From: a virus
Lineage: Duplodnaviria; Caudoviricetes
Virus record (IMG/VR): IMGVR_UViG_3300027917_004314
DNA length: 64,000 nt
Reading direction: 5' to 3' (one strand)
Below, one piece after another: positions 1,228 to 33,436 of the stretch (positions within the stretch are counted from its first letter, which is position 1; every line of letters begins with the position of its first letter). The translations under genes and the position numbers were made by a program. The notes below the pieces were generated by a model. The model searched no databases and was not told the origin of the DNA. It worked only from the letters and a program-made list of their open reading frames with translations.

Positions 1228-1249
1228 TCGGGATGATTTATAAACACAA

Positions 1250-2521: not shown

Positions 2522-2537
2522 TAATCATAAATTTATT

Positions 2538-3154: not shown

Positions 3155-3162
3155 GCTGGAAA

Positions 3163-3546: not shown

Positions 3547-3561
3547 GAGGTGTCATGACAT

Positions 3562-5799: not shown

Positions 5800-5819
5800 A
5801 TATTGGAGTGTACACAAAT

Positions 5820-6602
5820 ATGGCGAGTGAACATATCACTAGAGAAGGTAATCTGCAATCTCCAGATATAATTGCCGAAAACCCGCAGCAGCCTAAGGGT
5901 GCGCGTATTCGCCAACTTATCCGATGGCGTGTTCCGGGATTAGGATTTGTAGATATGTATATTAACCCACAAAATATGGACATTACGGAAAAGAAAGTGA
6001 TACAGAAGCAGCGTACGAAAGGTGGATATATTGTTCAGTACTGGGGAGAAGAACTGATGACAATCCGTATGTCTGGATCAACAGGAGCGTCTGGGATTGA
6101 AGGTATAAATGTTTTACGTAAAGTATATAGAGCTGAACAAGATTCTTTCTTACAAGTGGCGCAGAGCTTAGCAGACAGAGTGAACTCATACACTGCTGGT
6201 GGCAACATCGCAAATATTATTGCCCAGGGGGCTGGCCAATCAGCCAAAGATTTGTCTGGCAGTATCAGCGGCGGTCTAATCACCGGTCTATTAGGCGGTG
6301 GCTCTAGTCCATCGTTGTTGCCAACTTTGGGTTCACTAGCGGTATCTGTAGAGTTATTCTATCAGGGATGGGTGTTCAAAGGATTTTTTGAAGAGTTTAC
6401 TGTTAGTGAAAATGTAGCCAATGGGCCGGGCGTGTTTAATTATAACCTAAGTTTTACTGTCCTAGACAGAAGAGGAGTTAGAAGTAACTTTATGCCTTGG
6501 CATCGTGACCCGACAGAAAAGGACCAATCAGGTAATCCAGTTGGATATAGGAAATCTGATGCAAAATCTACTCCAATGAGTTTTGGTGATATTGAGGAAT
6601 AA
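5820..6602 (+). CDS. Tail tube initiator / baseplate-proximal tube-fold protein
   Basis: MYINPQNMDITEKK..QRTKGGYIVQYWGEEL.TIRMSG and FKGFFEEFTVSE...FNYNLSFTV resemble tube-initiator proteins. ORF track starts at 5808 GTG; ATG at 5820 follows GGAG. Confidence 0.65.
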   Translation: MASEHITREGNLQSPDIIAENPQQPKGARIRQLIRWRVPGLGFVDMYINPQNMDITEKKVIQKQRTKGGYIVQYWGEELMTIRMSGSTGASGIEGINVLRKVYRAEQDSFLQVAQSLADRVNSYTAGGNIANIIAQGAGQSAKDLSGSISGGLITGLLGGGSSPSLLPTLGSLAVSVELFYQGWVFKGFFEEFTVSENVANGPGVFNYNLSFTVLDRRGVRSNFMPWHRDPTEKDQSGNPVGYRKSDAKSTPMSFGDIEE

Positions 6603-13632: not shown

Positions 13633-15654
13633 ATGGCGGCACCAAACCTGCCCGTTGTACCACTATTACCGTCTACTGGCGCTCGGCCTTTAACATATCC
13701 AGAGTTATTGGATAAATTAAAGTGCGTATGTACCGCTGGCGCACAAATACGACCATCTTCACTGCCGAGTGCTACAGTCGACTTGGCAGATATTATCGCA
13801 GATCACGCTAGGTTTTTAACTATCTTCACAGCTGGGTTTGGTATTATAACGGTGGTGTTAAAAATGATAGCATGTATTATTGACGTGCTATGCGCCTTAA
13901 TGAATCCGTTTTCTGTTATATCTGCTTTAATTAGATTGTTTGGAACATGTTTACCAGATTTTATTCTCATATTCCCGCAATTTGCCATACCTGCCAAGAT
14001 TATTTGTATACTAAAAATTATCTTGGCAATTTTGGAATATATACTTACAGTCATTGTTCCACTGATACAAGAAATTATACAGAACGTTGAAGGTTTAATC
14101 AGATCCATAGACGACAACAATGCACAAGGAATAGCGGCCATATCGTTCAAAATTGCGACATTGATTAAAGAACTATATAGTGTGTTGGGGATCTTTGAGG
14201 CGCTATCTGCAATATGGGCCATGATCAAGTTGTTTTTAGACGCTGGAATAGGAATCCCATGTGGCGGTTCAGGTGGCTCATGTGAAGGGTGTGCAGATGA
14301 TCAATGTAATGATACGCTTAGAGAGTCAAACATTACTGGTACTGATGGTGTGCTTTCTTTGAGCTATATAAGTTCCAGCAGTTACATAATCAGATTTTAT
14401 TCGAACTCTAAAAAATCCAATTTTCTGGATCTGCGTGGCTTTTTCCCAAGGGGGTTGAACTACAGTGAAATTGAAGATGAAGATGATCTTCCATATGTTA
14501 TAACTGTAGATGGAACAGCATACGCTATGACTGGCATAAATTCTAGCGGTACTGCTACATTATCTTTTATTAACCAACCATACGAAACAGACGGTTACTT
14601 ATCTGGTATGGTTTCTGGGGTTTCTTTTGTTGACCCCTTGGATATACGCTTTGGTGTTGATACGCAAACATTTTTACCATCGTATGCAGGCACCCGCTAT
14701 GTAGAATTAATAGACAGAACGAACGCTTCTTTCGCAACGGCTAATAATGGAACATGGCGCATTGAAGAAGTATATGATAGCAATAATGTGCGCTTAAGAA
14801 GATCAGATGATTACTGGCGCTATAGCGGCGGGGCTAACCCAGCAAACCATCTAGACTGGAAATTGTTGCCAGCAACTCCTTCTGCTGGATCTAATAAAAC
14901 ATTTGATCTTGAAATAAACCATAATGAACTTATAAGACATAACGTAATTGGTGCTGGATGCCACCCAGCTATTAAGGCAACCTTAGATGCATTTAATAAT
15001 AGATTTCCTGACGCAAGTAATCTCACGCTTCCAGAGTTGCCAGATTTCGATTTGTTGTTATCTGAGTTGGATACATGTTTAGCTGCTGTTGGTCCAGAAG
15101 ATGTGACCACAGACTACGTATTAGATAATTATGATTCTATTGCGTCGGGTGCAGCAGCTTTACAAAGTTGTATTGCTGGACCTATGGAAAATTTCACATC
15201 TGAGCTTACCGATTACGTAGAAGATATATACCCTAGAATTTTCGACCCAGAAAACTCTACTTTAGAAGCAGAGCCGCTCATTCAGGTGGTCGGCGAATAT
15301 GTTGATGTTACTTTAATACCATATGATATTAATGGGAATAAATTGGCGCAGACATTGCCAGTTGGTATTATAGAGGCAACAATCTTTAGCGATGTAGGAG
15401 TATTATCGTCGACACAAGAGGTGCTTGACGAGAATGGTGACTCTACTGGTGATTTTGTGGCAACCTTAACCAGTTATAAACCAACTACGGTGAAGCTTAG
15501 CGCACAGGTTGGTGGTAAAGACGTCGCTGATTTTAACGGTTCAACTTTAGTAAAGCGCATAGTAGAAGTTGAATTCGTAGCACCCGAGGTACAGAGAGTA
15601 CCAGCCATTGAGGGTGACACCCCAGAACCGCTTGGCGTAGGTAAAACGGAGTAA
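13633..15654 (+). CDS. Uncharacterised baseplate-region protein: hydrophobic helical N-terminus, Cys motif, Ig-like C-terminus
   Basis: 673-aa ORF with GGAG RBS; residues ~60-205 very hydrophobic; C-x6-C-x2-C-x4-C; C-terminal Ig-like pattern (VTLIPYDINGN...G.FVATLTS). Confidence 0.55.
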   Translation: MAAPNLPVVPLLPSTGARPLTYPELLDKLKCVCTAGAQIRPSSLPSATVDLADIIADHARFLTIFTAGFGIITVVLKMIACIIDVLCALMNPFSVISALIRLFGTCLPDFILIFPQFAIPAKIICILKIILAILEYILTVIVPLIQEIIQNVEGLIRSIDDNNAQGIAAISFKIATLIKELYSVLGIFEALSAIWAMIKLFLDAGIGIPCGGSGGSCEGCADDQCNDTLRESNITGTDGVLSLSYISSSSYIIRFYSNSKKSNFLDLRGFFPRGLNYSEIEDEDDLPYVITVDGTAYAMTGINSSGTATLSFINQPYETDGYLSGMVSGVSFVDPLDIRFGVDTQTFLPSYAGTRYVELIDRTNASFATANNGTWRIEEVYDSNNVRLRRSDDYWRYSGGANPANHLDWKLLPATPSAGSNKTFDLEINHNELIRHNVIGAGCHPAIKATLDAFNNRFPDASNLTLPELPDFDLLLSELDTCLAAVGPEDVTTDYVLDNYDSIASGAAALQSCIAGPMENFTSELTDYVEDIYPRIFDPENSTLEAEPLIQVVGEYVDVTLIPYDINGNKLAQTLPVGIIEATIFSDVGVLSSTQEVLDENGDSTGDFVATLTSYKPTTVKLSAQVGGKDVADFNGSTLVKRIVEVEFVAPEVQRVPAIEGDTPEPLGVGKTE

Positions 15655-15657
15655 TAC

Positions 15658-17283
15658 ATGTCAGATATTTCTAATAAAGACTCACGGGCAAATTTTGATG
15701 TCATTGCTTTTGCTAAAAGTATCTTATATGAAGTGGATGCTGTCAGGGCTTTTAGTAAAACATCAGATGATAAAACTGAAGGGCAGGTACAAACATACAT
15801 AGAGTCTAGAGTTAATGCGTTTTTTAGACTTATTGGCTTGCCAATGTTCGTAGAAGTAAAACCGAAAAACGAGCGCAATGCAAAGGTAAAGGCCGAAGGG
15901 TTTTCCGGCGAGCAAATACTGACCCCAGGATTTTCTAGAACTGTAAGTCCGACATTAGATTCAGTATACAATATTGTAAACAGTACAAAAGTAGAGATCA
16001 GCAAGGAAGCACAAAGCAGAGAGTCATACCTACTTAAAATAGAAAATAATATTGGCACACAAAAAATGAATGACGATATGTTAGAGGCCCTAAAGACTCC
16101 CATACCTTTACAGGCTAATGTAGTTGGCATGGTTGGCGAAAGCGGGCGTATAGTTCAGAAGAAATTAAAACCACTTATGACTGTACGTTTGGCTGACGGA
16201 GTGTTGCCACGCAGAAATGAACTAGCAAGACCGTTTTTATCGGAAAAAGATGATGACAAAATTGATTCAGATACGATATTGCCCAAACCATTTATCGAAA
16301 CTGTCATACGCATACGGTTGGTTGAAGCTGGAGGGGGAGGTGATGCGGCCAACAGAGAAAAGGTAAGTGATTTTCAGAATTCTATCAAAGCGGCGCTAGG
16401 CCGAGATAAAGACGGCGATGACATATTTGATCAAGTGTTTTCTAACTATAAGAAAGCATTTAGCGAAACGGATGTGCGAGAGGATTTTATTTTAAGTAAG
16501 TTGCTCGGAGCACTTCAACTGTTAGCCAATAAGTGGGTAAATATTAAAAGAAAACAAACGCGCTTGGCAAGCGAAATAGAATCTAATATCCTTATCAAAA
16601 CATCGTCTGCAAAATCAAGTCCGTTTGCCAGGAGAGCAAGTATTTCAACGACACTGAGTAATGATTCTACATTAAGTAAAAAGATCAGGCATGAGTCAGA
16701 AAAAATAGCAGTTGAGGAATCATATTTAAGTTTACTTACCTCAGATGATGTGGCTAGGTCCTCGGCCATTACACCGAAAGTTGCGGCAACTAAAAATACT
16801 GCAACCAGTGCACTTAACAGGCCGTTCACTGAAATAATGAATAATGACCTTACTCAGTTTAAGAAAAACTTGTCCAACCTTAACAGAACAAAGAAGAAAA
16901 AGGCAGCAGAGCTAGATAAATTAAGAATTGAGTTAGAAATGATGACCGGTGAGTTTACTGGGCTATCGATTCCAGATGTGATTATTACTATGACAGCATT
17001 ATTTTTGATAACTGACAAAGACTTGCTGGGACTTTTAGATTCCAAGACTCTCAAAGAAATGGAAAATGATGACATTCTGAAGAGGGCACTGGAATCCGTA
17101 GGGTCGCCGACAGATACTATCACAGCTGTAGCAAATCTTGGTCTTGTTGTTGACGATCTATATACCTTGTTGAAAACAAATATTGCTATAGTGGTAGACA
17201 GGAAAACTAAAACAAGCGTAACCAGTCGCGCCAATAGAAGAAAAGCTAAATCAACTAAAAGGAGCGTTAATTATTCCGAGTAA
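15658..17283 (+). CDS. Hypothetical tail/baseplate-region protein
   Basis: 541-aa, largely helical/coiled-coil ORF within the structural operon; no recognised family. Confidence 0.5.
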   Translation: MSDISNKDSRANFDVIAFAKSILYEVDAVRAFSKTSDDKTEGQVQTYIESRVNAFFRLIGLPMFVEVKPKNERNAKVKAEGFSGEQILTPGFSRTVSPTLDSVYNIVNSTKVEISKEAQSRESYLLKIENNIGTQKMNDDMLEALKTPIPLQANVVGMVGESGRIVQKKLKPLMTVRLADGVLPRRNELARPFLSEKDDDKIDSDTILPKPFIETVIRIRLVEAGGGGDAANREKVSDFQNSIKAALGRDKDGDDIFDQVFSNYKKAFSETDVREDFILSKLLGALQLLANKWVNIKRKQTRLASEIESNILIKTSSAKSSPFARRASISTTLSNDSTLSKKIRHESEKIAVEESYLSLLTSDDVARSSAITPKVAATKNTATSALNRPFTEIMNNDLTQFKKNLSNLNRTKKKKAAELDKLRIELEMMTGEFTGLSIPDVIITMTALFLITDKDLLGLLDSKTLKEMENDDILKRALESVGSPTDTITAVANLGLVVDDLYTLLKTNIAIVVDRKTKTSVTSRANRRKAKSTKRSVNYSE

Positions 17284-17290
17284 TTAATTT

Positions 17291-17728
17291 TTGAAAATGT
17301 CATTTGATTTAAAAATTGAAAATAACAATTTGAATTTAAATCCCGACGGATCATTACAGACTGTTCACGATAATAATAAATTAGCGCAGGATGTTGTAAA
17401 AGGGATACTGACACCATTGGGCTCTAATAAGTTTTTTAGATGGTATGGTAGCATGATAAGCGCGCGAGTTGTTGGAAATATTTTATCGGCATCACAAACA
17501 GAAGCAGAAATAGAAAGAGCGATATACAATACTTTAAGTAATTTAATAGCTTTACAGAAGGTACAGGCACGCACACAGTATGTTTCTGCCGGAGAAACCA
17601 TCGCTGCTATTAAAAACATAACGGCGGCCAGAGACCCAGTAGATCCAAGAGAATGGGAAATCACGGTGTCGGTTTTGACCAGAAAACTAACACTTGTGGA
17701 AGAGACTTTTAGCTTGAGGGTGGTATAA
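17291..17728 (+). CDS. Baseplate wedge/sheath-initiator, gp25-like
   Basis: 145 aa; DLKIENNNL..., Q...K.ILTPLGS..F..WYGS, RDPVDPREWEITVSV pattern; precedes baseplate J. Confidence 0.75.
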   Translation: MKMSFDLKIENNNLNLNPDGSLQTVHDNNKLAQDVVKGILTPLGSNKFFRWYGSMISARVVGNILSASQTEAEIERAIYNTLSNLIALQKVQARTQYVSAGETIAAIKNITAARDPVDPREWEITVSVLTRKLTLVEETFSLRVV

Positions 17729-17731
17729 CAC

Positions 17732-20700
17732 ATGGTAACTTTTAAAAGCTTTGATAACATTGTCCTTGACATGGTGCAACAACTTAGGTTAACACAGCCT
17801 AGTTTGGATACCAAACCTGCAACGGTGGCCAGAGATCTTATGATTGATCTGCAGGCACAACAAGTGTCAGAAATCTATGAGGCACTTAGAGAAATTGCCG
17901 CATTACAATCGATTTCTAATGTTACTGGGCAAGACCTCACAAACTATGCATCCAACTATGGTGTTACTAGACAAAGCGGAACGAAAGCAATAGGAACTGT
18001 TGTTTTTACATTCAAAAACATAGACTCAGATATTACCATTTCTGCCGGCACTTTGGTGAGGACAGCAAACGGCCTTCCATTTTCAACTGTTTCCGCAATC
18101 AACATAACCACCTCCCAAGCAAATTCATTGCGCGCCACCGCCACACGACTGCGCGATCGGTTAAATACGGCTGGTATTACAGATGAATTTGCTGTAGAAG
18201 CTTCTGTGGAAGCAAACAGCGCTGGTTCAATCGGCAACATTGCTTCTTATTCTATTACACTTACAAATGCGAGTGATGCTAATAATGTTACAAACTTATC
18301 TTCATTTACTGGCGGTTCAAATTTAGAAAGTGACGCTGCGCTAAGGTCGCGTATTCTCGCAGCATTTGCTGGCACAAACGTAGGTACAGCTGTTGGTTAT
18401 AGAAGTATAGTATTGAATCTTGCTAGTTCTATAGATGCCCTGGTAGTTGAGCCCGGTGATCCATTGATGACAAGGGATGGCACGGTTACTGTTGTAGATT
18501 CTAATGGGACTGTGACTGTATCAGAACCCGGAACAGGAGGTAGGGTTGATATCTATATCATGGGAGAAAACCTGCAATCTGCTACAGATAGCTTCGTCTT
18601 CAATGACTTAAGTGGCAGAGGAGACCCTACGGATTCCAATAATGATTTTATTATGGGTCAAAGCAGCTTGACTGCTGATACTAGTTTAACACTAAATTCT
18701 AGAAGGGTAGCAACCTTGTCTGAGGGTGCAGAGATACCAACACAACCGGTGTCTAATATAGTATCAGTTAGTGGCAGTTCCTCTGGTCCTAATTTTGTAG
18801 AACAATATACTGACTCGGCAGGAAACCTACAAGGGAATTATGCATTAGTTAAAGATACTGGCGCAGCTGGTGGTAGCCCATTTGGTTTAGACAAATTTGT
18901 ATGGACTTCTGATCGAATAGAACTAGAAGGAGAGTCGGCTGTAAAAGGAGAATATAATAGCATTGACGAACTTACTTTTACAGATATATTAAAAGTTGGA
19001 GCTATAGACCAAGAGGTCCAGGTTACCAATGAAAATTCGTCTGTTTCAGCCTCTAACAGAAGTTATATAACTGTCAGCCACACGCCTGTTAAAACTGTAA
19101 CCAGAGTTTTTAATCTAACGACTGGCGAGAGGTATACAATTATCGATCAGAATCCAGATGGTTCTGGTAGCACAAATACTACTGGACGGGTTCAAATTAG
19201 TGGCAGAACACTGCCAACGGCTAGTGATATATTACAGGTTGACTATATTTGGGTTTTTCCACATGACCAATATGTTGACTTCGATAATTTTGACCCAAGA
19301 GATACGCTAGATGAAGCACAAGATTCGGTAGAGTGGGGATTCTCAAACTACATTAGAGACGAAATTACAACGGCGGTGCTAGATTCGTACAATAATCTGA
19401 CAGTCACTACTACATATCCGATTAGTCGTATACTTTCCGTTAATACCTATGAAACGGAAGTGGCTGTAGTAAGTTCTCAGAGCACCATGACAGTGTCAAA
19501 GGCTGTGAGCAACATACACAGCATCACAGATACGACACTATCTGGAAATCCTGAAATTTATAATACAAGCGCAGGCGATGGCAGTTATTCAAATTTGGTA
19601 ATTACTTTGCCAACCGACACCATAGCGGAGTCTGGGGATTCTGCTACTGTGATATATAATTTGGTAGATATTTCAGATGTAGATGGATATGATGTTGCTA
19701 CCGCCTTGAACAATGTTATCACCCTCAATCCTTATACCGTCGTGTCGACTGGGACAAGTGTAAGAGTCAATTATGTAGCAGATTTCCTTAATATAATGCC
19801 AACTACCAACATATCGGCGCTTCCTGTGTCAACTGATGGATTTAATTCTTTTCTTGACGTTGGTGGTTACCAGCCGGTACAGAACACCTATTCGGGTAGT
19901 ACGGTAGTAACAAATCAGAGAAGGTCGCCTAGCAATCTGAGTGTAACTACCTCTAGCATACCGGATAGCGGTACGCTTAGGATTGTCGGTACAACAATTA
20001 ATAAGGTTACAGATGCCGTATTTACTTCGACGTCAACAAATTTGGATTTCTCAGTTCCAATTAGAGTTTCAGAAGGCTTGTCAACTAGCGCCATCATTCC
20101 TAGCACAATATATATAGCCAGGATTGTGTCACTAGAAGAGGTAACATTATCTACTTCAAATGAGGTGCAGACTGTTGTCACAGACTACGATCTTACCAAC
20201 TATGCAATTAAGAATTCTCGATGGGATCGGGCCAATGCTATAGAACAAACCGCTCTATTGGCAACAAGGGCGCTTTTAACATCAACGGAGACTAATACCG
20301 GCAGTCCGATTCGTACAGGTACGATTCTACGTGCTACTTTCTATTATGCCAAACAAAATGATTCAGAGGATTTATTTTACTCGCGAAATGGCACGGCTAT
20401 CACAGATAAAAGATTTGGGGCTGTGTCTTCGATTAGTAGAATAGCCGGCTTCCAAAATTCTAGCGGCACCGTCAGCGGCAGAGTCTTAATAGATTCTTTT
20501 AACCAGCCACTACCCAATATAACATACCTTGTCGATTATGATTATACAGCCCCGAAAGAAAATGAGAGAATTACAATAAATTTCGAATACAATAAATTAA
20601 TTGTAGATGCAACACAAGCTGTAGAAAATGGCCGCCCCATTACTGCCGATGTTCTAAGCAAAGCGGCCACAAAAATAGAGCTGGACGTAGAGGCCGTTAT

Positions 20701-20971
20701 TATTGTATTAGACAGTTTTAGTAACAAAGAAACAACGGTACAACAAGATGTTACAAACAACATTTCTGCTACGCTAAATGCGTCGGCGCTTGGAACAACG
20801 CTAGATAAATCTGACATTTCTGCTAACGCATATAATGTGGCCGGATTGGATAGGATAAGAATCACCAGGTTTAACAAAACTGGTGTTTTAGGAACTGTAC
20901 TCAGTGTAACTGCGCAAAAAAGTGAATATCTGGCGGCCGGAACGGTTACCGTTACTGTGGAGGAACGTTAA
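17732..20971 (+). CDS. Baseplate J-like wedge protein with large internal insertion
   Basis: YGVTRQSGTKAIGTVVFT, GSIGN, GGSNLESDAALRSRI, RVDIYI (N-core) and RPITADV...VAGLDRI...EYLAAGTVTV (C-core) are baseplate-J motifs. Confidence 0.85.
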   Translation: MVTFKSFDNIVLDMVQQLRLTQPSLDTKPATVARDLMIDLQAQQVSEIYEALREIAALQSISNVTGQDLTNYASNYGVTRQSGTKAIGTVVFTFKNIDSDITISAGTLVRTANGLPFSTVSAINITTSQANSLRATATRLRDRLNTAGITDEFAVEASVEANSAGSIGNIASYSITLTNASDANNVTNLSSFTGGSNLESDAALRSRILAAFAGTNVGTAVGYRSIVLNLASSIDALVVEPGDPLMTRDGTVTVVDSNGTVTVSEPGTGGRVDIYIMGENLQSATDSFVFNDLSGRGDPTDSNNDFIMGQSSLTADTSLTLNSRRVATLSEGAEIPTQPVSNIVSVSGSSSGPNFVEQYTDSAGNLQGNYALVKDTGAAGGSPFGLDKFVWTSDRIELEGESAVKGEYNSIDELTFTDILKVGAIDQEVQVTNENSSVSASNRSYITVSHTPVKTVTRVFNLTTGERYTIIDQNPDGSGSTNTTGRVQISGRTLPTASDILQVDYIWVFPHDQYVDFDNFDPRDTLDEAQDSVEWGFSNYIRDEITTAVLDSYNNLTVTTTYPISRILSVNTYETEVAVVSSQSTMTVSKAVSNIHSITDTTLSGNPEIYNTSAGDGSYSNLVITLPTDTIAESGDSATVIYNLVDISDVDGYDVATALNNVITLNPYTVVSTGTSVRVNYVADFLNIMPTTNISALPVSTDGFNSFLDVGGYQPVQNTYSGSTVVTNQRRSPSNLSVTTSSIPDSGTLRIVGTTINKVTDAVFTSTSTNLDFSVPIRVSEGLSTSAIIPSTIYIARIVSLEEVTLSTSNEVQTVVTDYDLTNYAIKNSRWDRANAIEQTALLATRALLTSTETNTGSPIRTGTILRATFYYAKQNDSEDLFYSRNGTAITDKRFGAVSSISRIAGFQNSSGTVSGRVLIDSFNQPLPNITYLVDYDYTAPKENERITINFEYNKLIVDATQAVENGRPITADVLSKAATKIELDVEAVIIVLDSFSNKETTVQQDVTNNISATLNASALGTTLDKSDISANAYNVAGLDRIRITRFNKTGVLGTVLSVTAQKSEYLAAGTVTVTVEER

Positions 20972-23900: not shown

Positions 23901-26900
23901 ATTTATTAAAGGGCCAACAATTCCGGCTATAGAATTGTTGGTCGAGGCTTTTACACAGATAACCCCCAACATTACCGAATCTGTTTTCTTAGAGTGGATT
24001 TTGGGCAGAGATTCTCTACACTTAATGGAAATGGAATTATCTGCTGATAGCGACGATGATTTGCCGACCTATGCTCCTGGCAAGTTTGGCAACGGTTTGC
24101 TGCTAAACAAAGCGGGACAAACGGCTACAATTCCAGCTAATTCTAATATAAGTTTCCGCGAGGGTACGTGGGAGGCTTTTGTAACCCCAGAGTGGAAGGG
24201 GATAGATAATGATGCTACTCTGACATTTGATATACTTTTTGATGGACAAGAGCGCCTCAATAATATATTTATCGGAGCAGACGCCGCTAACCCAACAGAG
24301 ATTCCGTTCTCGTTGGATAGCACTGACCCAAGCGTGCTGGGTAGACCCAGCAATTTACATTCAGCAACTGGATATTTCATTTGGTTTGACACGTCAGCAA
24401 GCAAATGGCGCATGCGTAATAGGGCTCCCATATCTGAAAGCCGTTTGTTTTCTGGCAGGATTACAACTTCAGGCGAGTTCCATGACGTAAAAGTTGCTAG
24501 TACTGCAGATGGTTACGATGGATATGACGGCTATGAGATAAATGAAATAAACGATTCTCTAAGATCGACAAACGAAACTATCAGATTTAGTTTTGTCGTA
24601 GACGGATATGATTCACTTAACATGGCGTTTGATGCCTATGACGCGTATAATGGAGATATTGCAGGGTTTGATGGAATAGATTTTACATCGGACGATATAC
24701 ATTATTTCTTTGATACCGGATATTTAGCGAACAGGTGTCGTATGTCATTGTACAAAGATGGCAAGGGGTTTCTTCGTTATAGAGTTTATGACGGCATTGG
24801 CCGCGTCAAAATGTTAAGTCACAACATTAATGATTGGGGTCTTAACGAAACTCACCACATTGCAACGTCATGGAAAATAGGCACTATAGAAATGAAAGAC
24901 GAGTTACACTTATTTGTGGATGGCGAAGAAGTTCCTAATACATATAGATTTAGTGGTTATTTAAGCGTGCCGGGTAGCTCGACACTATATATGGATGAGG
25001 CTTCAGAAATTCTAATTAGCTCTGTATCCAGCCCAACAATAGGTGGCATTGATCTTTCCACCACATCTGGGTCTGATATTGTATCATCTGTTGGTTCGGA
25101 TTTCAGTTCGGTGACGGTTGGTAGCAGATTTTTGATTCTAGATAGTACTGCTGATGGCGTTGCCACACAAACATCGCCGTATGTTTATGTGAGATCCATA
25201 CCGAGCCCAACATCTCTGCAACTGGAGACGGGCCCACCAGGGTCTGGGACACCATACAATGCGGTTTCAACTTTAGACGATGTAAGATTTTCTGTGAACC
25301 CGCTTACTTTAGAAACAGTAAGTGACCCCGAAATAGAAAGAATAAGAGTATTTGAGTTAGACACTGGCGGACTTGAAACAGAGCTTTATTCGCCATCAAC
25401 GCTAACTCCGGATTACGGATTTACAGAAGATGGATACAACGATATAGTTAATATTTATAACGGTTTGGCCGTAGGTTCGAGCGTAGTGTTGAAAACTTAT
25501 GGTCTAAACATCCAACGATGCATCAATTATGCGTATGTTTGGCCAGACAGATTGACAAATTTGCTAAATGTTGTGACACCTCCGCCAACAGCTATTTCTA
25601 AAATTAATGTCACCAATTTAATAACTAGGCGAACATCTGTTGGTTTGGGCACATTCGCTCTGATAGCGACTATAGTGGGTGGACACATAGTACCTGTGTT
25701 GACGTCAAACCTGGAGTTTTGTCAACCATCTAATACCATAACTGGCAGAAGACTTACGGCAACATTGTCTGGGGATAATATTAGTTTCTCTGGACTCAAT
25801 CGGATATTTATTATCGGATCAACGTCAGATGGCTATGGCTTAGAAACTATAACCTTTACATCTACTGGTAAACAAACAACTACCGGTTATTTCACAGAAA
25901 TTACAGATATTATAGCATCATTTACACCTATAGATTCTAGCAGAGATGCCGGAAGCGTTGAAATTCGAGAAGCCGTCCCTATAAATTGGCAAGAAAATGA
26001 TGGCTATTATGCAGAAATACATCTGTCAGTACGGGAGCAGAATGGCATTAACGGCACCGCCACAGTAGGAACTGGCAGGGTAAGAGACGTTTCTGCTAGA
26101 TTTGGGGAAGAAGATATTGGTAAAACTTTCAATATAGATTCGCCTGGTTCTATTGCTGGTGTATACACAGTACAAGATGTCCCACTAGATCCATCTGGCA
26201 CAGTAAAAGACTCAGATACGGTAATTTTGGACACAACGTGGGGGGATGGATATTCTAGCATTCAATGGCGGCTACTTACCACTTCCTATGGTGACAGTGG
26301 TTTTGCCAACGGACTGCTCACTTTTGAGACTGTTGGCACAGGCGGAGATCCATTTTTGCTTAGAAGTTGTTGGTACGAGGTAGACCACCCTGCATTTCTG
26401 ATTATTCCGTGGGATCAAATCCCAGATAAAATATATGTCGGCTCTGACATGAATGGAGAAAACCAGGCAAACGCAGTTATAGACGAGATGCGTATATTAG
26501 ATGAGCTGTCGGTTGACACTGGCCTTGGGGAATCTGCACCAAGTTCCGGAAGGTCCATAACAACAGATTCTTTGGTAGTGGAGGAATTTACGGAAACAAC
26601 TCAAACGCTCGGATTATTCCATTTCAATGATGACGTTACAAATAGCGCTGATTTCTGGTCCAGTTTTTCTGGCTCGTACAGACAAAGCGAAAACAGCGTT
26701 AATAGCAATTTTGAGCAATCTGGGGTGTTTATTTATAATCAGCCACTACAGTATGATAACGCATCCATTTTTAACAATGATGAGGGCACGATTGAATTTT
26801 GGATTAGTCCAATTTTGGACGGGTATAACGACCCGACAATTAGATACTATGTAGATTTGTCACCAGATTTGCAAGCTGCAGCGACGGCAGTTTCGGCGTT

Positions 26901-27783
26901 GATAGTACCACTACCGTCTAGGGCCAGATCAGTAAGCTCTGTAACTATAACGGGCAGTGATACCAACTATTTCACGAATGGTAGCCTATCTGCAGATGGC
27001 AATACTGTCACTCTTGGGCAGCCACTTCCAGGAAATGTCCGTGATGTTACAGTTACATTTGTGCCGATAACCAGTCAGGGAGATAGATTTAGCATTTTTA
27101 AAAATGCAGCTAATTCTTTAATACTACGCGTAATTGCTTCCGGAATCACATATCAGATTACAGTGCCGATATTCTGGAAAAAGAATACGTGGCATAGAGT
27201 TTTCGTGGGTTGGGATCTGAACAATTTAGATAATCAGGATAGACTTATTATGTTGGTAGATGGAATGGAAACCGGGACTGCCCAGTATAGCAGTGACTCT
27301 GTCGTGCTAGGCTCCAGCAAGGTAGGGACTCGGGCTGCTAGAAACATTATGACTGACATTAACCTTGTTGATTCATTTAATACGGTTAATATTGGCGCTG
27401 ATTTTGCGGGTCAATACTCGGCATTGGCAAGAATTGATAATATGAGATTTTCTAGTGAGTTAAGAACAGTTACATATCTGGGTGGTGAAGGACCAGGTCA
27501 ACTACTGGGAAGAGATTTAATATATACAAGTAATACTGATACAGCACAACCAGTTGTTAGTGATGCGCTTACACGATTGTTATTAGATTTTGACACTACG
27601 CAGACCGAAGTAGAAAATCTAATCACTATAAGAAATGCTACTACTGGCATATTCGACTTTTTTGTAGAAGTTATCGATACGTTTAGCCTTGCAGATACGC
27701 AACTGGCGCACGATTTGATTGAAGCACTAATTAATAGGATAAAGCCGGCTCACACCAGAGCTTTTGTGAGCTTTACGAAATAG
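20971..27783 (+). CDS. Giant baseplate wedge (gp7/gpI-like) protein with LamG/ConA-like domains
   Basis: 2270 aa; wedge core (LVDNFG..., RETYRNAV...GPTIPAIE) and terminal INRIKPAHT; LamG signatures GTWEAFVTP/HHIATSW/LFVDG/IDEMRI and GTIEFWISP/WHRVFVGW/LVDG/IDNMRFS. Confidence 0.7.
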   Translation: MANNLRIQRLAVKSSTLLELSFNYPLDSGIGINNITIEGASGGTSDATILSVSVSTNILSISVRPLIPRAHYKLTVRSTSSQTVTGVHGQPFLEDGATNVVFFVGQQEENVVRDDILGELNNGIYNTDEGTLIFDTIDAGAKEILVNGQIAGEVRSANYVSIEVADEILTRGEGPFDRFANESVFQVLRVGSTSTGASAAASISFAEFPSDPVSLQRVLVEDEEVSNTSNDANSFVGLDISLSKSPVIQLTSLTLTRDTTTYTYDISAYKYGVKESKYDTDNSYQAIDLDDNQIRLSSAAVGPTFPFPQGSDTITASYYYKREGRIVESDTVEVYTPVDIVRESVPAVSVAFTLGNAPIINSAGDIPTLNGVTWLDPGQNFDPTKKHAAFTTELIYNTSNLPKAPGEYSVNYSTGQVIVFGVDGSGVDGTTVTPPVASYKYKKVFQEGLDYRFFSDINEIASLPGRDLRDGPGTVAFEYEDTFADGSDFEFSSHIEVIDERVNNNLIDTIGLKTTYSPVREVFRIFNETTGEIYTTTRINGNEVYFSSVSPPNTVDVSRERVEFDQVIQSQLVVTDELTIAGKAFVAFRILFTDSDIMSASGSFIGASFNSSLTFSDTTIFEDEFFYDPNDTVNENLARLQNVGDYMVNYESGIVYVAATSGSSTAVGDASYRRGKIKTRNDHIIRVDDVYRSASVTAANTETMTVGTVSDTTVDITNLSHVGERTVDGATIDVSSTSTITVSSDIFRLSHVYQVTDLQTRCDPIDFAESAVVSSGTPTVVTLDEYGVAITDDNYGSGLLVKTAGSREYVEAERISTMFAAGLATLVSAISVNPLDDTTNYYSQGADGYIDAVTNRIYLPTGSGIAGSLVEATYKVALRPGASVLVDYITGEMFIDYTYTTDEILISYEYGDNVLDWSISDSLSSGTEYYVTYRYGALRQPLVDNFGVLTSLEELATIPDALDRETYRNAVSGSLQSFIKGPTIPAIELLVEAFTQITPNITESVFLEWILGRDSLHLMEMELSADSDDDLPTYAPGKFGNGLLLNKAGQTATIPANSNISFREGTWEAFVTPEWKGIDNDATLTFDILFDGQERLNNIFIGADAANPTEIPFSLDSTDPSVLGRPSNLHSATGYFIWFDTSASKWRMRNRAPISESRLFSGRITTSGEFHDVKVASTADGYDGYDGYEINEINDSLRSTNETIRFSFVVDGYDSLNMAFDAYDAYNGDIAGFDGIDFTSDDIHYFFDTGYLANRCRMSLYKDGKGFLRYRVYDGIGRVKMLSHNINDWGLNETHHIATSWKIGTIEMKDELHLFVDGEEVPNTYRFSGYLSVPGSSTLYMDEASEILISSVSSPTIGGIDLSTTSGSDIVSSVGSDFSSVTVGSRFLILDSTADGVATQTSPYVYVRSIPSPTSLQLETGPPGSGTPYNAVSTLDDVRFSVNPLTLETVSDPEIERIRVFELDTGGLETELYSPSTLTPDYGFTEDGYNDIVNIYNGLAVGSSVVLKTYGLNIQRCINYAYVWPDRLTNLLNVVTPPPTAISKINVTNLITRRTSVGLGTFALIATIVGGHIVPVLTSNLEFCQPSNTITGRRLTATLSGDNISFSGLNRIFIIGSTSDGYGLETITFTSTGKQTTTGYFTEITDIIASFTPIDSSRDAGSVEIREAVPINWQENDGYYAEIHLSVREQNGINGTATVGTGRVRDVSARFGEEDIGKTFNIDSPGSIAGVYTVQDVPLDPSGTVKDSDTVILDTTWGDGYSSIQWRLLTTSYGDSGFANGLLTFETVGTGGDPFLLRSCWYEVDHPAFLIIPWDQIPDKIYVGSDMNGENQANAVIDEMRILDELSVDTGLGESAPSSGRSITTDSLVVEEFTETTQTLGLFHFNDDVTNSADFWSSFSGSYRQSENSVNSNFEQSGVFIYNQPLQYDNASIFNNDEGTIEFWISPILDGYNDPTIRYYVDLSPDLQAAATAVSALIVPLPSRARSVSSVTITGSDTNYFTNGSLSADGNTVTLGQPLPGNVRDVTVTFVPITSQGDRFSIFKNAANSLILRVIASGITYQITVPIFWKKNTWHRVFVGWDLNNLDNQDRLIMLVDGMETGTAQYSSDSVVLGSSKVGTRAARNIMTDINLVDSFNTVNIGADFAGQYSALARIDNMRFSSELRTVTYLGGEGPGQLLGRDLIYTSNTDTAQPVVSDALTRLLLDFDTTQTEVENLITIRNATTGIFDFFVEVIDTFSLADTQLAHDLIEALINRIKPAHTRAFVSFTK

Positions 27784-27796
27784 GAGGAATTTTCTC

Positions 27797-30670
27797 ATGG
27801 CAACCAGACGTCTAGACGTAGATGTTCCACGCGTGAATTGGTTTGATGGATTGAGCGTTACTGAAGATGATATGGATGATGAGCAAAGTAGAAATATTGG
27901 CATAGATGCCGCGACCGTGAATAATTTTTTCGGCAGCGGTGTGCTTAACCATTCTTTAGCTGATACGACATTTTTGGACACCGATTCGCTCAATTCACAG
28001 CAACAGGCGTTACTAGATGCTTATTCATTTGACGGACAAAACGTTTATATAGGTTCATCCCTTACAAGTGTATCCGACGAGGTACAGGGTGTGCAAATTG
28101 CGGTGACGCTTACAGGTGTAGATTTGGATGGAACGGAATCTACAAAAGTGTCTATCATAGGAGATGAATTTGGAGATAACCTTATTCATGATGATTTAAT
28201 ATTCCATGAAAATGGCACTCAAATAACAAGAGGTAGATATAATAACCTGCGCTCCATCATATTTAACGACTTTTCCGGCAATCTGAGGGGTAGCCGCGCC
28301 CCAGCAAGAGAGTCATCAGATGTATATGAAGAGCTGGTCGGAAGGTGTGTAGTTCGCGAAGCTCGTTCACTAGAAGTGTCACCAGATCCTATAATTGCCT
28401 CACAAATGGACCAACCAACCAGGTTTTTTAATAGTTTCTCGCCGGCACAGGTTGGTGACACTGTAAGCTCTATGCTACAGGATGCCATTGGAGCCGACAA
28501 ATCTGTTGCTGACCTTGGTATTGGATTTTTGGCAACAGCCTCTAGATCGTTAGCGCCTAATGATGTGAGCACGATGGTTGGCCAGAAATTTCTGGCTAAT
28601 GGGTCTAACATACAAAAAGTATCTATTTTGCTATCAGTGAAGGAAGATACTACTGTTCTTCCTGCCGATGCCTATAACTGGTCTGGCTCAATTACTATGA
28701 CCATATATGAACTGCAGACTGATGTGTCATGTCCGACTGACCCAGTACCAGATAATGCCGTTGATTTTGATCCAAATCCAACAATAATTACACAACTTTC
28801 ACTGGATAGTGATGACTTAGAGAAACAAGGAGTTGTGCTGACAGATGGATATGATGCATACCAAATTGTTGACTTTGTGTTTACAGGCTCTCCCGTCTCT
28901 GATCCGCTGCGGACAGCAATTGAAACCGACAGATATTATGCTATAGCAGTCCACAGGTCCGGTGACACTAGTGTGGGCACGTTGGTGTTGGCAGAAGTTC
29001 CCCACCAGGTGACACATGGATATATGATAGTATACGACGGAATCCAATGGGTAAATGTGACTGACAGTGATATGTGGTTTGCAATATATGGCGATTATGT
29101 CAAAATGGCGGATGGCATTGGATATGATGAGGGTGTTGGAGTGGAAGTTCCAAAGATTAAAGAAGACGATACCAACACAGAAGTGCCGTATGTAGAGGGG
29201 TTCCATTCATATTATACAGTGACAAGAGATGCATATAATTATGTAATTATGGAGACTCAAAACGAGTTTTCTGACCCCGTGCAAGATCAGAGAACCGGCA
29301 ATAATGTTTACTCTAGAATTACTCCTATGCCGTCGTTTTCGCTTAACAGTTCTTCACAGCTTTCATCCCTTTTGGTGTCAGAACCATCTCCTGTAATGCT
29401 GGCGTGTGCAAGAGATCAGAATGCCAGGGGCAACCCTGCTTCCATCACTGGCACAATGGATTTGATTGGATTAGTAACTAGCAATGAGCTTAATATGTTA
29501 AACCCCGATGCGGATCTGTTAAATAATAATTTGGTGGGCTCTACGATAAAACCGGATAGTGCTGGGTGTACTACAGAATACAGGATTATAAGTGCTACTG
29601 AAGTCGACGATGCTTATGGCGATACAAACGGTGACGGCGAAATAGGCACAAACGATTACACACTTATAGATGATTGGCTGAGCAAATATAATGTTTATTT
29701 AATAACACTGCCGGTTGGTTATCAGAAAATAAGTGCATCAGATGCATATTTCCAAGGTGAAATTGCGGACGGAGAGCTAGATGTGTTGCAACTGCTCAGG
29801 GCTGATGTAAATGACGATGGTTATGTTGGGGCCGATGACTCTGCACTAATACAATCTTTTGTAAATAGAGAGATTTCAACGTTTCCGGCAGGGTCTACAT
29901 TTCCAAGATTGAATATAAAAGTCGAAAGCATACTTGATCCGCTTACTACAAGCGTGAATATCCCAGCTACGTGTCCTGGGTATTCTACTGCGCCATATAG
30001 CGTTTTGACCTGGGAGATAGATTATTTCGCCACATGGATACCAGATTTGTTAGTTGTACAGGACACCAGAAGAGAAATGCCAACCACTTTTACTGATGAT
30101 GTTGCGGCATGTGATGGTGGAAAAAATAATTTCTTTGTGCCGGGAGATCTGGTAATTGGTGAGCTGCAACTTAACCCAGACGGGACACATTATTCTGTAG
30201 ATTTCGAAATGAATCATTTGTCGTTAGATATTCCAATCACGGATTCATATGGTAACGCAACTTTTGTCGATGGCTATACAGGAATACTATTGTTTGACAA
30301 TTTTGTGGCCGAAACTTCAAACGGAAAAACGTTTTCTGGTTTTGATGCAATGAAATACGCTGATGGTACATATGTGCAGTTGACTGATTTTGCAGATGGT
30401 AAAGTTAAAATTGCTCCGTGTATACAATCAACAGCCAACGGCTTTGACGCACCTTTTGGTAGTATAATAGAAGATATTGTCGGAATGTATTATGACCCTG
30501 CTACGTCGCTAATGACTTTATACCTCGATAATCTTTTCGATGATGGTTATGAATCACGTCCAGCGCTTAGTACAAAAATTCTTGTATCGGTATATCTAAA
30601 AAGGGCTGGGTTTAAAAATGACACAAGAACGGTAACTATGGGCCAAATGAGAACATTGCTCGACATATAA
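27797..30670 (+). CDS. Baseplate/tail-fibre attachment protein with dockerin-like Ca2+-binding pair
   Basis: N-terminal RVNWFDG..VTEDDMDDEQ resembles the R.NYF.GQ.L...D...EQ start of contractile-system baseplate/fibre proteins; two dockerin-like repeats internally. Confidence 0.6.
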   Translation: MATRRLDVDVPRVNWFDGLSVTEDDMDDEQSRNIGIDAATVNNFFGSGVLNHSLADTTFLDTDSLNSQQQALLDAYSFDGQNVYIGSSLTSVSDEVQGVQIAVTLTGVDLDGTESTKVSIIGDEFGDNLIHDDLIFHENGTQITRGRYNNLRSIIFNDFSGNLRGSRAPARESSDVYEELVGRCVVREARSLEVSPDPIIASQMDQPTRFFNSFSPAQVGDTVSSMLQDAIGADKSVADLGIGFLATASRSLAPNDVSTMVGQKFLANGSNIQKVSILLSVKEDTTVLPADAYNWSGSITMTIYELQTDVSCPTDPVPDNAVDFDPNPTIITQLSLDSDDLEKQGVVLTDGYDAYQIVDFVFTGSPVSDPLRTAIETDRYYAIAVHRSGDTSVGTLVLAEVPHQVTHGYMIVYDGIQWVNVTDSDMWFAIYGDYVKMADGIGYDEGVGVEVPKIKEDDTNTEVPYVEGFHSYYTVTRDAYNYVIMETQNEFSDPVQDQRTGNNVYSRITPMPSFSLNSSSQLSSLLVSEPSPVMLACARDQNARGNPASITGTMDLIGLVTSNELNMLNPDADLLNNNLVGSTIKPDSAGCTTEYRIISATEVDDAYGDTNGDGEIGTNDYTLIDDWLSKYNVYLITLPVGYQKISASDAYFQGEIADGELDVLQLLRADVNDDGYVGADDSALIQSFVNREISTFPAGSTFPRLNIKVESILDPLTTSVNIPATCPGYSTAPYSVLTWEIDYFATWIPDLLVVQDTRREMPTTFTDDVAACDGGKNNFFVPGDLVIGELQLNPDGTHYSVDFEMNHLSLDIPITDSYGNATFVDGYTGILLFDNFVAETSNGKTFSGFDAMKYADGTYVQLTDFADGKVKIAPCIQSTANGFDAPFGSIIEDIVGMYYDPATSLMTLYLDNLFDDGYESRPALSTKILVSVYLKRAGFKNDTRTVTMGQMRTLLDI
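29612..29863 (+). other. Dockerin type I-like duplicated Ca2+-binding motif
   Basis: AYGDTNGDGEIGTNDYTLI and RADVNDDGYVGADDSALIQSFV fit GD[VL]NxDGx[VI]xxxDxxxh. Confidence 0.7.
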
Positions 30671-30686
30671 TTCGGAGGTTTAAGAG

Positions 30687-32300
30687 ATGGTAACTGCATC
30701 TATAGTAATTTCGCAGGCCGGTAACCCGCCACCTGGTGGTTATGTTAGCGGCAGCAGAACAGACCTAGATACATCTGGGTTGGTAACTTTAACTAATGAG
30801 GATAATACTGGCGTTATATCATGGACATGGAAACTTATATCTATACCTGATGGTTCCTCGGTATCTTTATCTGGCGGCGCCACTTCTACGGCCACTTTTA
30901 CACCAGATGTAGATGGCTCATATTTGATACAACTTGCTGTAAACGGACATATTAAAGCTAGAGCAGTGGGCTCTGTTTTAACGTCTAATAATATTAGACT
31001 TATTGCGCGTGGAGAAACAGATGAGGTCGAAGGTAGCTGGACTCAGGCTGTGAACAACAATTTTGTTTTGTTAGAGGCGCTCGGCGCTGGTGGTGTTGGG
31101 GCACATGCTCTTGGTGGTTCAGTGCATACTGCCGATTCGCTTGCTGACCTTAATTCGAAAATTTCGGATGCTACACTGGATGATTCTAGTAATTCTAGAC
31201 CACCATCTGGCTCTGCGGGAGGACAGTTGGGCGGGACATATCCTAACCCAGACGTGCGTGGTATAAGGGAAACTAGTGGACCAACTTTGTTGACCATTGG
31301 TTCCATTGCAGATGGAGAGGTGCTGACAAGAAGTGGTTCTACTCTCACTAGTACCGCTGGCGGAGGTGCTGGTAACACTCTCGATCAGGCCTATGATGAG
31401 GGCGGCGGCGGAGTAGGCAGATCAATTACTGTAGATTCTGGCCCAGTTTTTATGGATGCTAGTGGTGCTGGAGCACTACAACTTGATGGATATCTTACCA
31501 TAAAAGAAATATCATCGCCAAGCGCATTAGGATCAAGCGGTCTTGTATACTCTAAAGACGTCTCATCAATTTCTGAACTGTTTTATATGGATGACGGTGG
31601 CCAAGAAATACAAATTACTGATAATGGCTCTGTTGTTGGCGGAGGTGCTGGTAATACACTTAATCAAGCTTATGATCAGGGAGGAGCGGGTGCTGGTAGG
31701 TCAATCACAGTGGATGCCGGCCCAGTTTTTATGGATGCTAGTGGTGCTGGAGCATTACAACTTGATGGATATCTTACCATAAAAGAAATATCATCGCCAA
31801 GTGCATTAGGATCAAGCGGTCTTGTATATTCCAAAGACGTCTCATCAATTTCTGAACTGTTTTATATGGATGACGGCGGGCAGGAAATACAAATTACCAG
31901 TAATGGAGCGGTGTCTGGTGGTGGTGGTGGCGGAGACGGATATGGTGACAGATTCTTAATTTTTTCTGATGATACAGAATTTACAGAAACAAGTAGCAGC
32001 CCAGTAACCAAAAAAACTTTTCGTCTGGTGAATGATTCTGATCAAGCTGCTACAACATATCGAATAGTTGTAGGGATTTGGGGAGAGACTGGTGATACCG
32101 CAAGGTGTACGTTTGTAGTAGATAGCACTAGTAATTATGCAGAGACTACTGCGACTTCGGAAACTATTAAGTCAATTGAGGTTACTGCAACTGCCACTGA
32201 AGACGACCCTATGACGGTAAATATTCAGTTATCCAGATCAGTGGGCAGCACAGACGATGTACATATAAAATATACAGATGTTTATGCAATTTTCTCATAA
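30687..32300 (+). CDS. Tail fibre/appendage protein with PKD-like N-domain and duplicated 93-aa module
   Basis: [13 protein letters not shown]...[19 protein letters not shown] (PKD/Ig-like); [11 protein letters not shown] fibre-type motif; two copies of [14 protein letters not shown]...QEIQIT.NG. Confidence 0.65.
31359..31916 (+). repeat. Tandem 279-bp intragenic duplication
   Basis: Units start at 31359 and 31638; cores 31440-31597 and 31719-31876 differ at only about 4 synonymous C/T positions. Confidence 0.9.
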
Positions 32301-32317: not shown

Positions 32318-33436
32318 ATGGCTTGGACAGCAACTGGAGGTGGAGACCATGGTGGGGATGATTGGATTATAACCGTTCCAACGGACGTTGGAGGAACACA
32401 TACCGGCGTTGGAATTTTTAGACTGCAAGCAGCTATTACTGTCATATCAAGTTTTTCTATATCGTGTGTCGAAATGCAAAAGACCGGCACTCCATGGTCA
32501 ACTAGCGGTGTCGTTACTGTCACTGCCACCAGATCAATTGATATATATAGACATTCATCAAACGGTGGCAATGGTAGTAACGGAGCCTATGCCGGTGGAA
32601 CTGCTGGCGCAAGTGGTGGTAGTGGCGGAACTGGCTCGCCAGGTGGTGAGTGTGGCGAATGTTGTAACGGTAATACTGGTGGTCTTGGAGGCCCTGGTCT
32701 TAACGGCGGTGGCGACACTCCAGCTGGAAATGGTGGTGTGGGGGGTAGCGGAACTGCCGGTGGTTCTGGTAGCAACATCACACTAACTGCAGTTAAGATC
32801 AGCTATGACACTCTATCTTGTTCTGGCGGTTCTGGCGGCAATGGTGGAAGCGCGCCAGGCGGTTATGGTGGTTCTGGCGGCAATGGCGGCAATGGTGGTA
32901 CTGGTGGAGATGCAGAAGATATTGGATGTCCTGGCACGCCGTTCGACGGTGGCGATGGTGGGCAGGGTGGAGATGGCGGCAATGGCGGGCAGGGTGGCAA
33001 TGGTGGCTATGGCGGCAATGGCGGTTCTGGCGGCAATGGCGGCAATATTACTTTACGCCATGGACTCCCCGCTAGCACCTACTTAAATGTAGTTGTCGGT
33101 TATTACAATAATGGTGGGTCCGGTGGTAGCGCAGGTACTGCAAGTGCTGGCAGTGGCGGTGCCCTTGGTTTAGGAGGATATGGTGGCTCCGGTGGCAGTG
33201 GCATTAATGGAGGCTCTAACGGAAATACTGGAGCACAAGGTACCAACGGAAATAACGGTTCTTCTGGTAGTCCGGGCTATGGTGGGAGTCCAGGTGGTAG
33301 TGGTAGCAATGGAACATACAGAGATAGCGAGTGGACAGGACCAGGTGGTCCAACTGAAACAGTTGCTATGGACGGACGCGCTATTTATCAAGAAGGTGGG
33401 TCTTATGTACAACGTTTTAGGACATCCTTTTTCTAA
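32318..33436 (+). CDS. Glycine-rich (GGxGGxGG) putative tail adhesin
   Basis: 372 aa dominated by GGNGG/GGSGG/GGYGG repeats, with ECGECC motif; last gene of the structural block; AGGAGG RBS. Confidence 0.6.

Follow-up and report, generated by a model that had tools for sequence, protein, structure and literature searches.

The tripeptide Asp-Gly-Tyr (DGY) recurs in the baseplate and fibre proteins encoded on a 64,000-nt stretch of a Caudoviricetes genome (IMG/VR record IMGVR_UViG_3300027917_004314), which was analysed over its full length and is referred to here as the window. The tail genes and the glycan island described below lie on the plus strand of the window. Five open reading frames (ORFs) carry the motif. 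The first encodes a 673-aa baseplate-module protein (13633–15654) with no Pfam match and a single DGY at nt 14590–14598 (aa 320), where the span of DGY, DAY and DSY sites in these five ORFs begins. It is followed by a 1079-aa baseplate J-like protein (17732–20971; Pfam Baseplate_J, E = 4e-25) with one DSY (nt 19382) and one DGY (nt 19682). The 2270-aa wedge protein (20971–27783), which comprises two LamG/ConA-like domains, contains 10 DGY and 2 DAY. Its DGY units are at nt 23509, 24508–24534 (DGYDGYDGY), 24601, 25429, 25828, 25999, 26245 and 26818, and its DAYDAY pair occupies nt 24631–24648; the tandem run, the DGY behind it and the DAY pair make up a hot loop region (24508–24648; aa 1180–1226) in the first LamG-like domain. 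The 957-aa distal baseplate protein (27797–30670) has 4 DGY, 6 DAY and 1 DSY, together with a dockerin-like module with a double Ca loop (aa 605–690). The 537-aa fibre (30687–32300), with a weak PKD-like Pfam match, has DGY at nt 31485, 31764 and 31935, and the last unit ends at nt 31943. Upstream, the inner-tail ORFs (1–13623; sheath fragment, tube, chaperones, tape measure, hub/spike region) served as an internal negative control, and a glycan island follows downstream of the fibre.

Counting the ORF translations yielded 19 DGY, 8 DAY and 2 DSY in the five outer ORFs (5516 aa), exactly the hand count of the initial annotation, down to its distribution of DGY over the ORFs (1/1/10/4/3). Its rough expectation was one or two DGY; residue composition predicts 1.39 (Poisson p ~1e-15), and a first-order Markov model predicts 3.7 (p ~2e-8). 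Among all tripeptides in these ORFs, DGY ranks first and DAY second in over-representation, and DGY takes up 19 of the 30 GY and 19 of the 55 DG dipeptides. Residue shuffles, scored for DGY or D[GA]Y, gave p<0.0002 both for the wedge and for the 957-aa protein; the fibre reached p=0.0014. The lone DGY in ORF 13633 and the lone DGY in baseplate J are each non-significant in the window when taken alone. Three of the wedge sites belong to the single DGYDGYDGY run, and two of the three fibre sites are copies inside a 279-nt (93-aa) tandem duplication (31358–31636 and 31637–31915; 87% identity). With this duplication and the tandem runs (DGYDGYDGY, DAYDAY, DGYDAY) collapsed, 22 independent D[GA]Y events remained, compared with 2.6 ± 1.6 in shuffles (maximum 9). 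The enrichment thus survives composition, Markov and shuffle corrections.

Within the window, the motif is confined to the outer proteins. The inner-tail ORFs (1–13623 and 15658–17728; 5140 aa) contain no DGY, DAY or DSY, which bears out the absence of DGY and DAY claimed for them, and the glycan island (9993 aa) contains no DGY, one DAY and one DSY. Each of the three residues is spelt with varying codons, also inside DGYDGYDGY. Instances of the degenerate 9-mer are restricted to the coding strand and to the reading frame, with none on the opposite strand. We conclude that the signal is selected in the protein rather than in the DNA, and a DNA-level origin (a methylation or recombination site, or recent slippage) was rejected on the same grounds.

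The residue requirements of the motif emerged from a specificity matrix of 177 wedge and 957-aa-type sequences (313,695 residues). Across the family, the observed-to-expected ratio (O/E) was 15.2 for DGY, 3.5 for DAY and 0.98 for DSY. No comparable excess was seen with Asp replaced (EGY 0.35, NGY 1.15) or Tyr replaced (DGF 0.79, DGW 0.38), and other orders of the same three residues gave 0.6–2.9. The motif therefore requires Asp in first place, a very small residue in the middle and Tyr in last place, which implies that the Tyr hydroxyl and the Asp carboxylate matter. Gly is much favoured over Ala in the middle, and DSY is not part of the motif. The original proposal of a D-[G/A/S]-Y signal enriched solely in outer baseplate and fibre proteins consequently stands as regards its confinement within the window and has to give up the Ser variant. 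The Tyr context is acidic, with Asp at −2, further Asp enriched at +1 and +2, and Lys and Arg depleted downstream; beyond this depletion and an enrichment of Asp and Gly after the Tyr, no extended sequence context was found. At the only D-G turn of plainly structural character, the ‘VDG’ of LamG, where D2097 and G2098 are invariant, the third residue is free (DGE 22, DGY 20, DGT 16, among others).

The DGY excess extends across an entire clade of huge phages, with hundreds of relatives. A tblastn search with the wedge protein found no match in 50,697 deposited phage genomes; more than 150 homologues are metagenomic, on contigs of up to 442 kb. A wedge-family profile search of 1.8 billion representative proteins returned only 266 matches, so the family is restricted. 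All 120 of the wedge homologues listed, down to 26% identity, contain 2–16 DGY each, compared with 0.3–0.9 expected. Gene order is conserved in 73 IMG/VR loci, and the excess is tied to particular orthologues: O/E reaches 19.5 for the ~700-aa orthologues of ORF 13633 (102 DGY versus 5.2 expected in 61 loci), 7.3 for baseplate J, 12.3 for the wedge (counted per orthologue in the 73-locus set) and 25.0 for the 957-aa protein. At the inner-tail positions −2 and −4, which correspond to the negative control of the window, orthologues of ~550 aa and ~750 aa gave 0.6 and 1.9, respectively.

A genome-wide scan was performed on the complete 442-kb relative G001, whose wedge is ~55% identical to that of the window. 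This genome encodes 70 DGY versus 17 expected, and 17 of its ORFs account for 54 of them: those of the baseplate cluster, together with the sheath, a beta-helix protein of NosD-like type, and proteins of 658 and 420 aa. The other 472 ORFs contain 16 versus 14.1 expected. The 658-aa protein (359419–361395, minus strand) displays an array of five DGY units in ~20 residues, and the 420-aa virion-region protein (270471–271733, minus strand) has three units within 7 residues; in relatives, the motif therefore reaches beyond the baseplate. The excess is not a generic feature of phage appendages. In T4 (gp5–12, wac, gp18, gp23 and gp34–37; 9008 aa), 4 DGY were counted versus 1.9 expected, and 2 versus 1.9 expected in the tail module of phage G of Bacillus, which by its baseplate J is the nearest relative in culture; neither is an excess, which rules out DGY as a general fibre or baseplate property.

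Alignments place the motif in fast-changing segments that are probably surface loops. Sixty per cent of motif sites fall into indel-rich alignment regions; for residues at large the figure is 17%, and for the remaining Tyr 13%. When aligned, the sites of 105 wedge sequences fall into 81 column clusters and those of 72 sequences from the 957-aa family into 50. None of the motif Tyr is invariant, and DGY, DAY and DSY swap within single columns. In the 105-sequence alignment, 1–8 variably spaced D[GAS]Y units occur in loops at window aa 1150–1230, in the first LamG-like domain; a collagen-like G-X-Y reading of the tandem run was rejected because the units are irregularly spaced in homologues. AlphaFold2 models were obtained for wedge aa 790–1985 (predicted local distance difference test score, pLDDT, 81.5) and for the 957-aa protein (pLDDT 85.9). 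The hot loop region of the wedge is modelled with low confidence (pLDDT 54–61), and arrays lie in such loops. In the two models, 17 of 22 motif Tyr are located outside strands and helices, compared with 37 of 72 other Tyr (p=0.048), in agreement with the loop placement anticipated by the initial annotation. Isolated DGY sites also occupy loops, often 0–2 residues before a strand. Compared against the PDB with Foldseek, the 1196-aa wedge model gave only weak multi-domain matches to phage tail proteins.

Calcium binding accounts for very little of the pattern. As noted before, one DGY alone lies in a dockerin/EF-hand Ca loop, at aa 674 of the 957-aa protein, and its alignment columns read DGV, DGI or DGY in homologues; a D-x-[DN]-x-D-G context was found at this site only. 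A DAY at aa 605 of the same protein abuts the first Ca loop. The resemblance to DxDxDG loops of dockerins and EF-hands hence covers only one or two of the 29 motif sites. The module itself is dockerin type I-like, with two Ca loops (nt ~29609–29866), and PF00404 is found in most homologues of the 957-aa protein.

Lineages that have lost the motif from individual proteins are informative about what is conserved. In a tree of the conserved N-terminal domain, wedges that have at most two DGY branch at scattered points between DGY-rich sisters, which points to at least 10 independent losses. In one such locus (L070), the wedge and the next protein have the motif replaced at columns where 10–12 of 12 relatives keep it, and the wedge retains only the structural DG-Y of LamG. 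The same contig has 7 and 8 DGY in two proteins further upstream, amounting to 24 in total versus 29 in a DGY-rich relative. Similarly, the baseplate module of L113 is DGY-poor, and its 1930-aa beta-helix protein has 5 DGY versus 0.34 expected. A system-wide loss in these two lineages was rejected, since an upstream beta-helix protein keeps 5–8 DGY. Loss at conserved columns combined with retention elsewhere indicates that DGY is dispensable for the folding or assembly of any one protein. One protein can lose it and another keep or gain it; what is kept is the presence of the tag on the particle and not in a given protein.

Taken together, DGY is a real, portable linear motif kept by selection on presumably outward-facing loops of virion appendage proteins. 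Its strict chemistry, loop placement, arrays, and conservation of number over position across unrelated virion proteins lead us to infer a single function for every copy, with a reader acting in trans.

Candidate readers are encoded directly downstream of the tagged proteins, where the glycan island postulated by the initial annotation proved genuine. The island (33795–63999; 30 proteins) encodes at least 10 glycosyltransferases (GTs) of GT4, GT2, GT47-like and GT29-like type. It opens with a 1201-aa protein (33795–37400), in which an intein-split GT4 (aa 1–290 and 731–837) is fused to a second GT4 (aa 850–1201). The Hint and LAGLIDADG intein (~aa 290–730, nt ~34662–35985) is inserted in the catalytic EX7E motif of the first GT4, and the BLASTP alignment with the contiguous 373-aa orthologue from locus L018 breaks cleanly at the intein. 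The remaining 29 ORFs (37405–63999) encode GT2, GT47-like and GT29-like transferases as well as sugar-pathway enzymes, including a GDP-mannose 4,6-dehydratase, epimerases, methyltransferases and two DegT aminotransferases. Also present are NeuB (56501–57340; E=1e-64), a cytidylyltransferase for cytidine monophosphate (CMP) sugars (CTP_transf_3; 53888–55336) and a GT29-like, sialyltransferase-like ORF (48389–49108). This nonulosonic-acid pathway (53888–57340: cytidylyltransferase, DegT and NeuB; plus the GT29-like ORF) is absent from the conserved genes downstream of the relatives’ baseplates. Two radical S-adenosylmethionine (rSAM) enzymes, one rSAM-SPASM (42267–43217) and one B12-binding (52468–53844), are embedded in the sugar island; their substrates could be sugars or, with lower probability, peptides.

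All 30 island ORFs were scanned against Pfam at E≤0.001, and the unannotated ones again at E≤1, in the window only. None of the 30 proteins has a transmembrane-like segment, and no Pfam match to a flippase (Wzx), polymerase (Wzy), initiating phosphotransferase (PGT) or oligosaccharyltransferase (OTase) was obtained among them. An island that is predicted to be all-soluble suits direct glycosylation of a cytoplasmic acceptor and does not suit polysaccharide export to a cell surface. Neither threshold revealed a sulfotransferase among the island ORFs, and no Maf- or FlmG-type domain appeared among the Pfam matches at E≤0.001. The earlier proposal that D-[GA]-Y is an acceptor for glycosylation or sulfation therefore gains from the enrichment, the loops and the adjacent island; its sulfation branch is not supported, nor is the S-layer-type route of Tyr O-glycosylation, which needs a membrane OTase and a lipid carrier.

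GTs accompany the baseplate module throughout the clade. The orthogroup to which the intein-split GT4 belongs comes directly after the baseplate and fibre genes at 50 of the 56 loci with downstream sequence, usually beside a GT2, and all five genomes that are at least 91% complete have GT matches directly downstream of the wedge. Among lineages with DGY-poor baseplates, L113 has lost both GT2 genes, L115 has lost the GT4 and the GT2s, and in L116 the GT4 and GT2s are missing before the next conserved gene. Co-occurrence of tag and glycan island, which had been put forward as a test, turned out to be undiscriminating, because a GT lies downstream in nearly all relatives and two DGY-poor loci have several. 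A complex prediction pairing the contiguous GT4 of L018 with the DGY-array loop of the same locus scored 0.00 and, run without controls, is evidence neither way.

As the adjacent soluble GTs are the most economical of the possible readers, we tentatively favour DGY as a candidate Tyr O-glycosylation acceptor read by the phage’s own soluble GTs encoded downstream; we regard this as quite possible, if somewhat short of probable. A sequon would be expected to accept neither Phe nor Trp in place of Tyr and neither Glu nor Asn in place of Asp, to lie in loops and to turn over in position, as is seen for DGY. A soluble GT encoded directly downstream would read DGY and O-glycosylate the Tyr hydroxyl in the cytoplasm, on folded or assembling proteins, with the Asp at −2 and the small residue at −1 contributing to recognition or acting as general base. 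In this phage, the chain might then be extended by island-made sugars, including nonulosonic acid, and the resulting glycan coat would cover baseplate and fibres at a density set by motif number, not by fixed sites. The fuller proposal, in which DGY is the sequon of a phage-encoded, fully cytoplasmic and lipid-carrier-free Tyr glycosylation that endows the clade with an evolvable glycan shield on tail, baseplate and fibres, built here with nonulosonic acid, is a possibility we hold with slightly more reserve.

Several observations weigh against Tyr glycosylation by the neighbouring GTs. Two DGY-poor loci, L111 and L118, keep 3–4 GTs, and L070/G006 retains its GT cluster though the wedge and the next protein lost the tag. 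Conversely, the DGY-rich L032 lacks the GT4/GT2 cluster just downstream and has a different neighbourhood there. Any GT is visible downstream in 48 of 51 DGY-rich versus 4 of 7 DGY-poor loci, a weak contrast whose p of ~0.02 was calculated by hand, ignores phylogeny and is limited by contig ends. Non-virion proteins of G001 do not avoid DGY (16 versus 14.1 expected), so a signature of this kind for a cytoplasmic enzyme was not seen. Several isolated sites are well ordered at loop-strand junctions, for which a structural or binding role would also fit. Furthermore, the GTs could act on DNA or on host structures instead. Overall, the co-variation of GTs and tag is mixed and their link is circumstantial, if suggestive, and the Tyr modification itself is a candidate only.

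Among the alternatives, direct ligand binding survives best, although we still consider it unlikely. Here, the Asp/Tyr pair would itself bind a host glycan, an extracellular polymer or a metal ion, and arrays would provide multivalent weak adhesion, as in the Tyr/Asp/Gly/Ser-rich complementarity-determining loops of antibodies. Restriction to outward-facing proteins, placement in variable loops of LamG/ConA-like lectin-type domains, variable array copy number and the depletion of basic residues after the motif would all suit such a role, and fast turnover with lineage-specific loss is expected of host-interaction surfaces. However, stickiness would follow composition, yet only the order D-G-Y is enriched and its permutations stay at 0.6–2.9. 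Relatives moreover tag the sheath, a neck-region protein and a beta-helix protein, none of which are receptor-binding tips, and the same motif persists in phages that are 26–80% identical and presumably have different hosts.

An assembly code, in which DGY would be the docking signal for a further protein of the virion or its assembly (for example a decoration protein, fibre anchor or chaperone), strikes us as improbable. A tag common to several unrelated virion proteins is expected for a single reader, its specificity is strict, and the 957-aa protein has a dockerin-like module. This explanation is nevertheless without a candidate reader. Assembly interfaces are usually fixed in position, whereas DGY sites turn over and number 0–16 per orthologue, and arrays in flexible loops would be unusual.

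Slightly less probable still is that an enzyme of the phage or its host modifies the Tyr in another way, for instance by sulfation, phosphorylation, nucleotidylation or radical-SAM cross-linking. The need for Tyr in an acidic, non-basic context does resemble tyrosine-sulfation sites, and the rSAM-SPASM and B12-rSAM enzymes of the island would be conceivable catalysts. Against this, Pfam scans of the island at E≤1 gave no match to a sulfotransferase, a kinase or a Fic domain, and the radical-SAM genes lie amid sugar-pathway genes and have no orthologue in the relatives’ shared downstream clusters.

Finally, a structural turn particular to these beta-sandwich domains, with D-G forming a tight turn and Tyr starting the next strand, is very improbable: 8 of 22 motif Tyr lie 0–2 residues from a strand start in the AlphaFold2 models versus 11 of 72 other Tyr (p ~0.06), but N-G, the best turn former, DGF and DGW are unenriched, neither other beta-rich proteins of these phages nor T4 and phage G tail proteins share the feature, arrays fall in low-confidence loops, and the loss lineages, whose orthologues fold without the motif, largely refute it.

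Returning to Tyr O-glycosylation by soluble phage GTs, the nearest known systems each differ in acceptor, enzyme type or target protein. Full-text literature searches for the DGY motif, alone or together with tyrosine glycosylation, returned nothing relevant. Sequon-directed glycosylation in bacteria is guided by D-(S/T)-(A/I/L/V/M/T) in the O-glycosylation of Bacteroidetes and by D/E-X-N-X-S/T in the case of Campylobacter PglB; there, an oligosaccharyltransferase of the membrane transfers glycans from lipid carriers, in the periplasm. They resemble the present case in a motif of 3–5 residues with an acidic start on many unrelated surface proteins, and differ in that the island here has no membrane protein and the acceptor would be Tyr. 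DGY shows over-representation of the sequon type on its putative substrates, with 19 versus 1.4 in the window and a family ratio of 15.2, while inner-tail and island proteins have none. Cytoplasmic flagellin O-glycosylation by FlmG and Maf with pseudaminic or legionaminic acid has Ser/Thr acceptors and no sequon (PMC7591256). What is shared with flagellin systems is a soluble nonulosonic-acid set (NeuB, CMP activation, aminotransferases), soluble GTs and an extracellular target modified before assembly or export. The island contains such a set (NeuB, CTP_transf_3, two DegT, epimerases/dehydratases) and, instead of a Maf or FlmG domain detectable by Pfam, the GT29-like ORF at 48389–49108.

Virion glycosylation by phage GTs has been described for mycobacteriophages, on the C-terminal tails of capsid and tail-tube subunits (Freeman et al. 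2023, as reported in PMC12619734). Both cases have phage GT genes beside structural genes, a presumed virion target and a presumed glycan coat. The candidate sites described here, known from sequence alone, differ in being internal D-G-Y units, with a would-be Tyr acceptor, on the proteins of baseplate, wedge and fibre. No DGY or DAY occurs in the inner-tail ORFs, which in the labelling of the initial annotation include the tail tube, and the capsid lies outside the window. Tyr O-glycosylation is established on S-layer proteins of Paenibacillus alvei (SpaA) and Thermoanaerobacter (PMC2943079). Its route is thought to be cosecretional, with a specific O-OTase acting on the completed glycan at 2–4 sites per protein, and no consensus motif is given in the text consulted. 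These S-layers demonstrate that prokaryotes can bear Tyr O-glycosides, on exposed lattice proteins; they are set apart by the machinery, as the island has no OTase, no transmembrane-like segment in any of its 30 proteins and no Wzx, Wzy or PGT. New here are the specificity matrix, the exclusion of DSY and, on the genes of the window, of sulfation, the soluble island, the intein-split and near-universal GT4, the lineages with loss or relocation, and the mixed GT co-variation.

If DGY is indeed a Tyr O-glycosylation sequon, phages would gain their first example of virion glycosylation guided by a sequon. Tyr-linked glycans, whose chemical stability makes them attractive for glyco-engineering, would become accessible by a new route with soluble enzymes. 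It would also reveal the way in which the adsorption apparatus of huge phages is masked or given added functions. Irrespective of mechanism, DGY is a practical marker, readable from sequence only, of outward-facing virion proteins in uncultured huge phages, and its repeated loss and relocation provide natural experiments for finding the DGY reader.

Some neighbouring genes deserve mention. Between the fibre and GT genes of the window lies a 372-aa ORF (32318–33436) with 33.6% Gly, GGxGG/GGNGG repeats, no Pfam match and no DGY, which is common to only two related loci. In one subclade, a gene for an Fpg/Nei-like formamidopyrimidine-DNA glycosylase is conserved within the GT cluster that adjoins the baseplate genes (L070 22911–23744; also L049, L055, L057, L058, L064, L065 and L067). 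In lineages with reduced GTs, a TubZ/tubulin-like gene (L113 24716–26071; L115 22116–23471) and a UvsW-like helicase directly follow the baseplate module.

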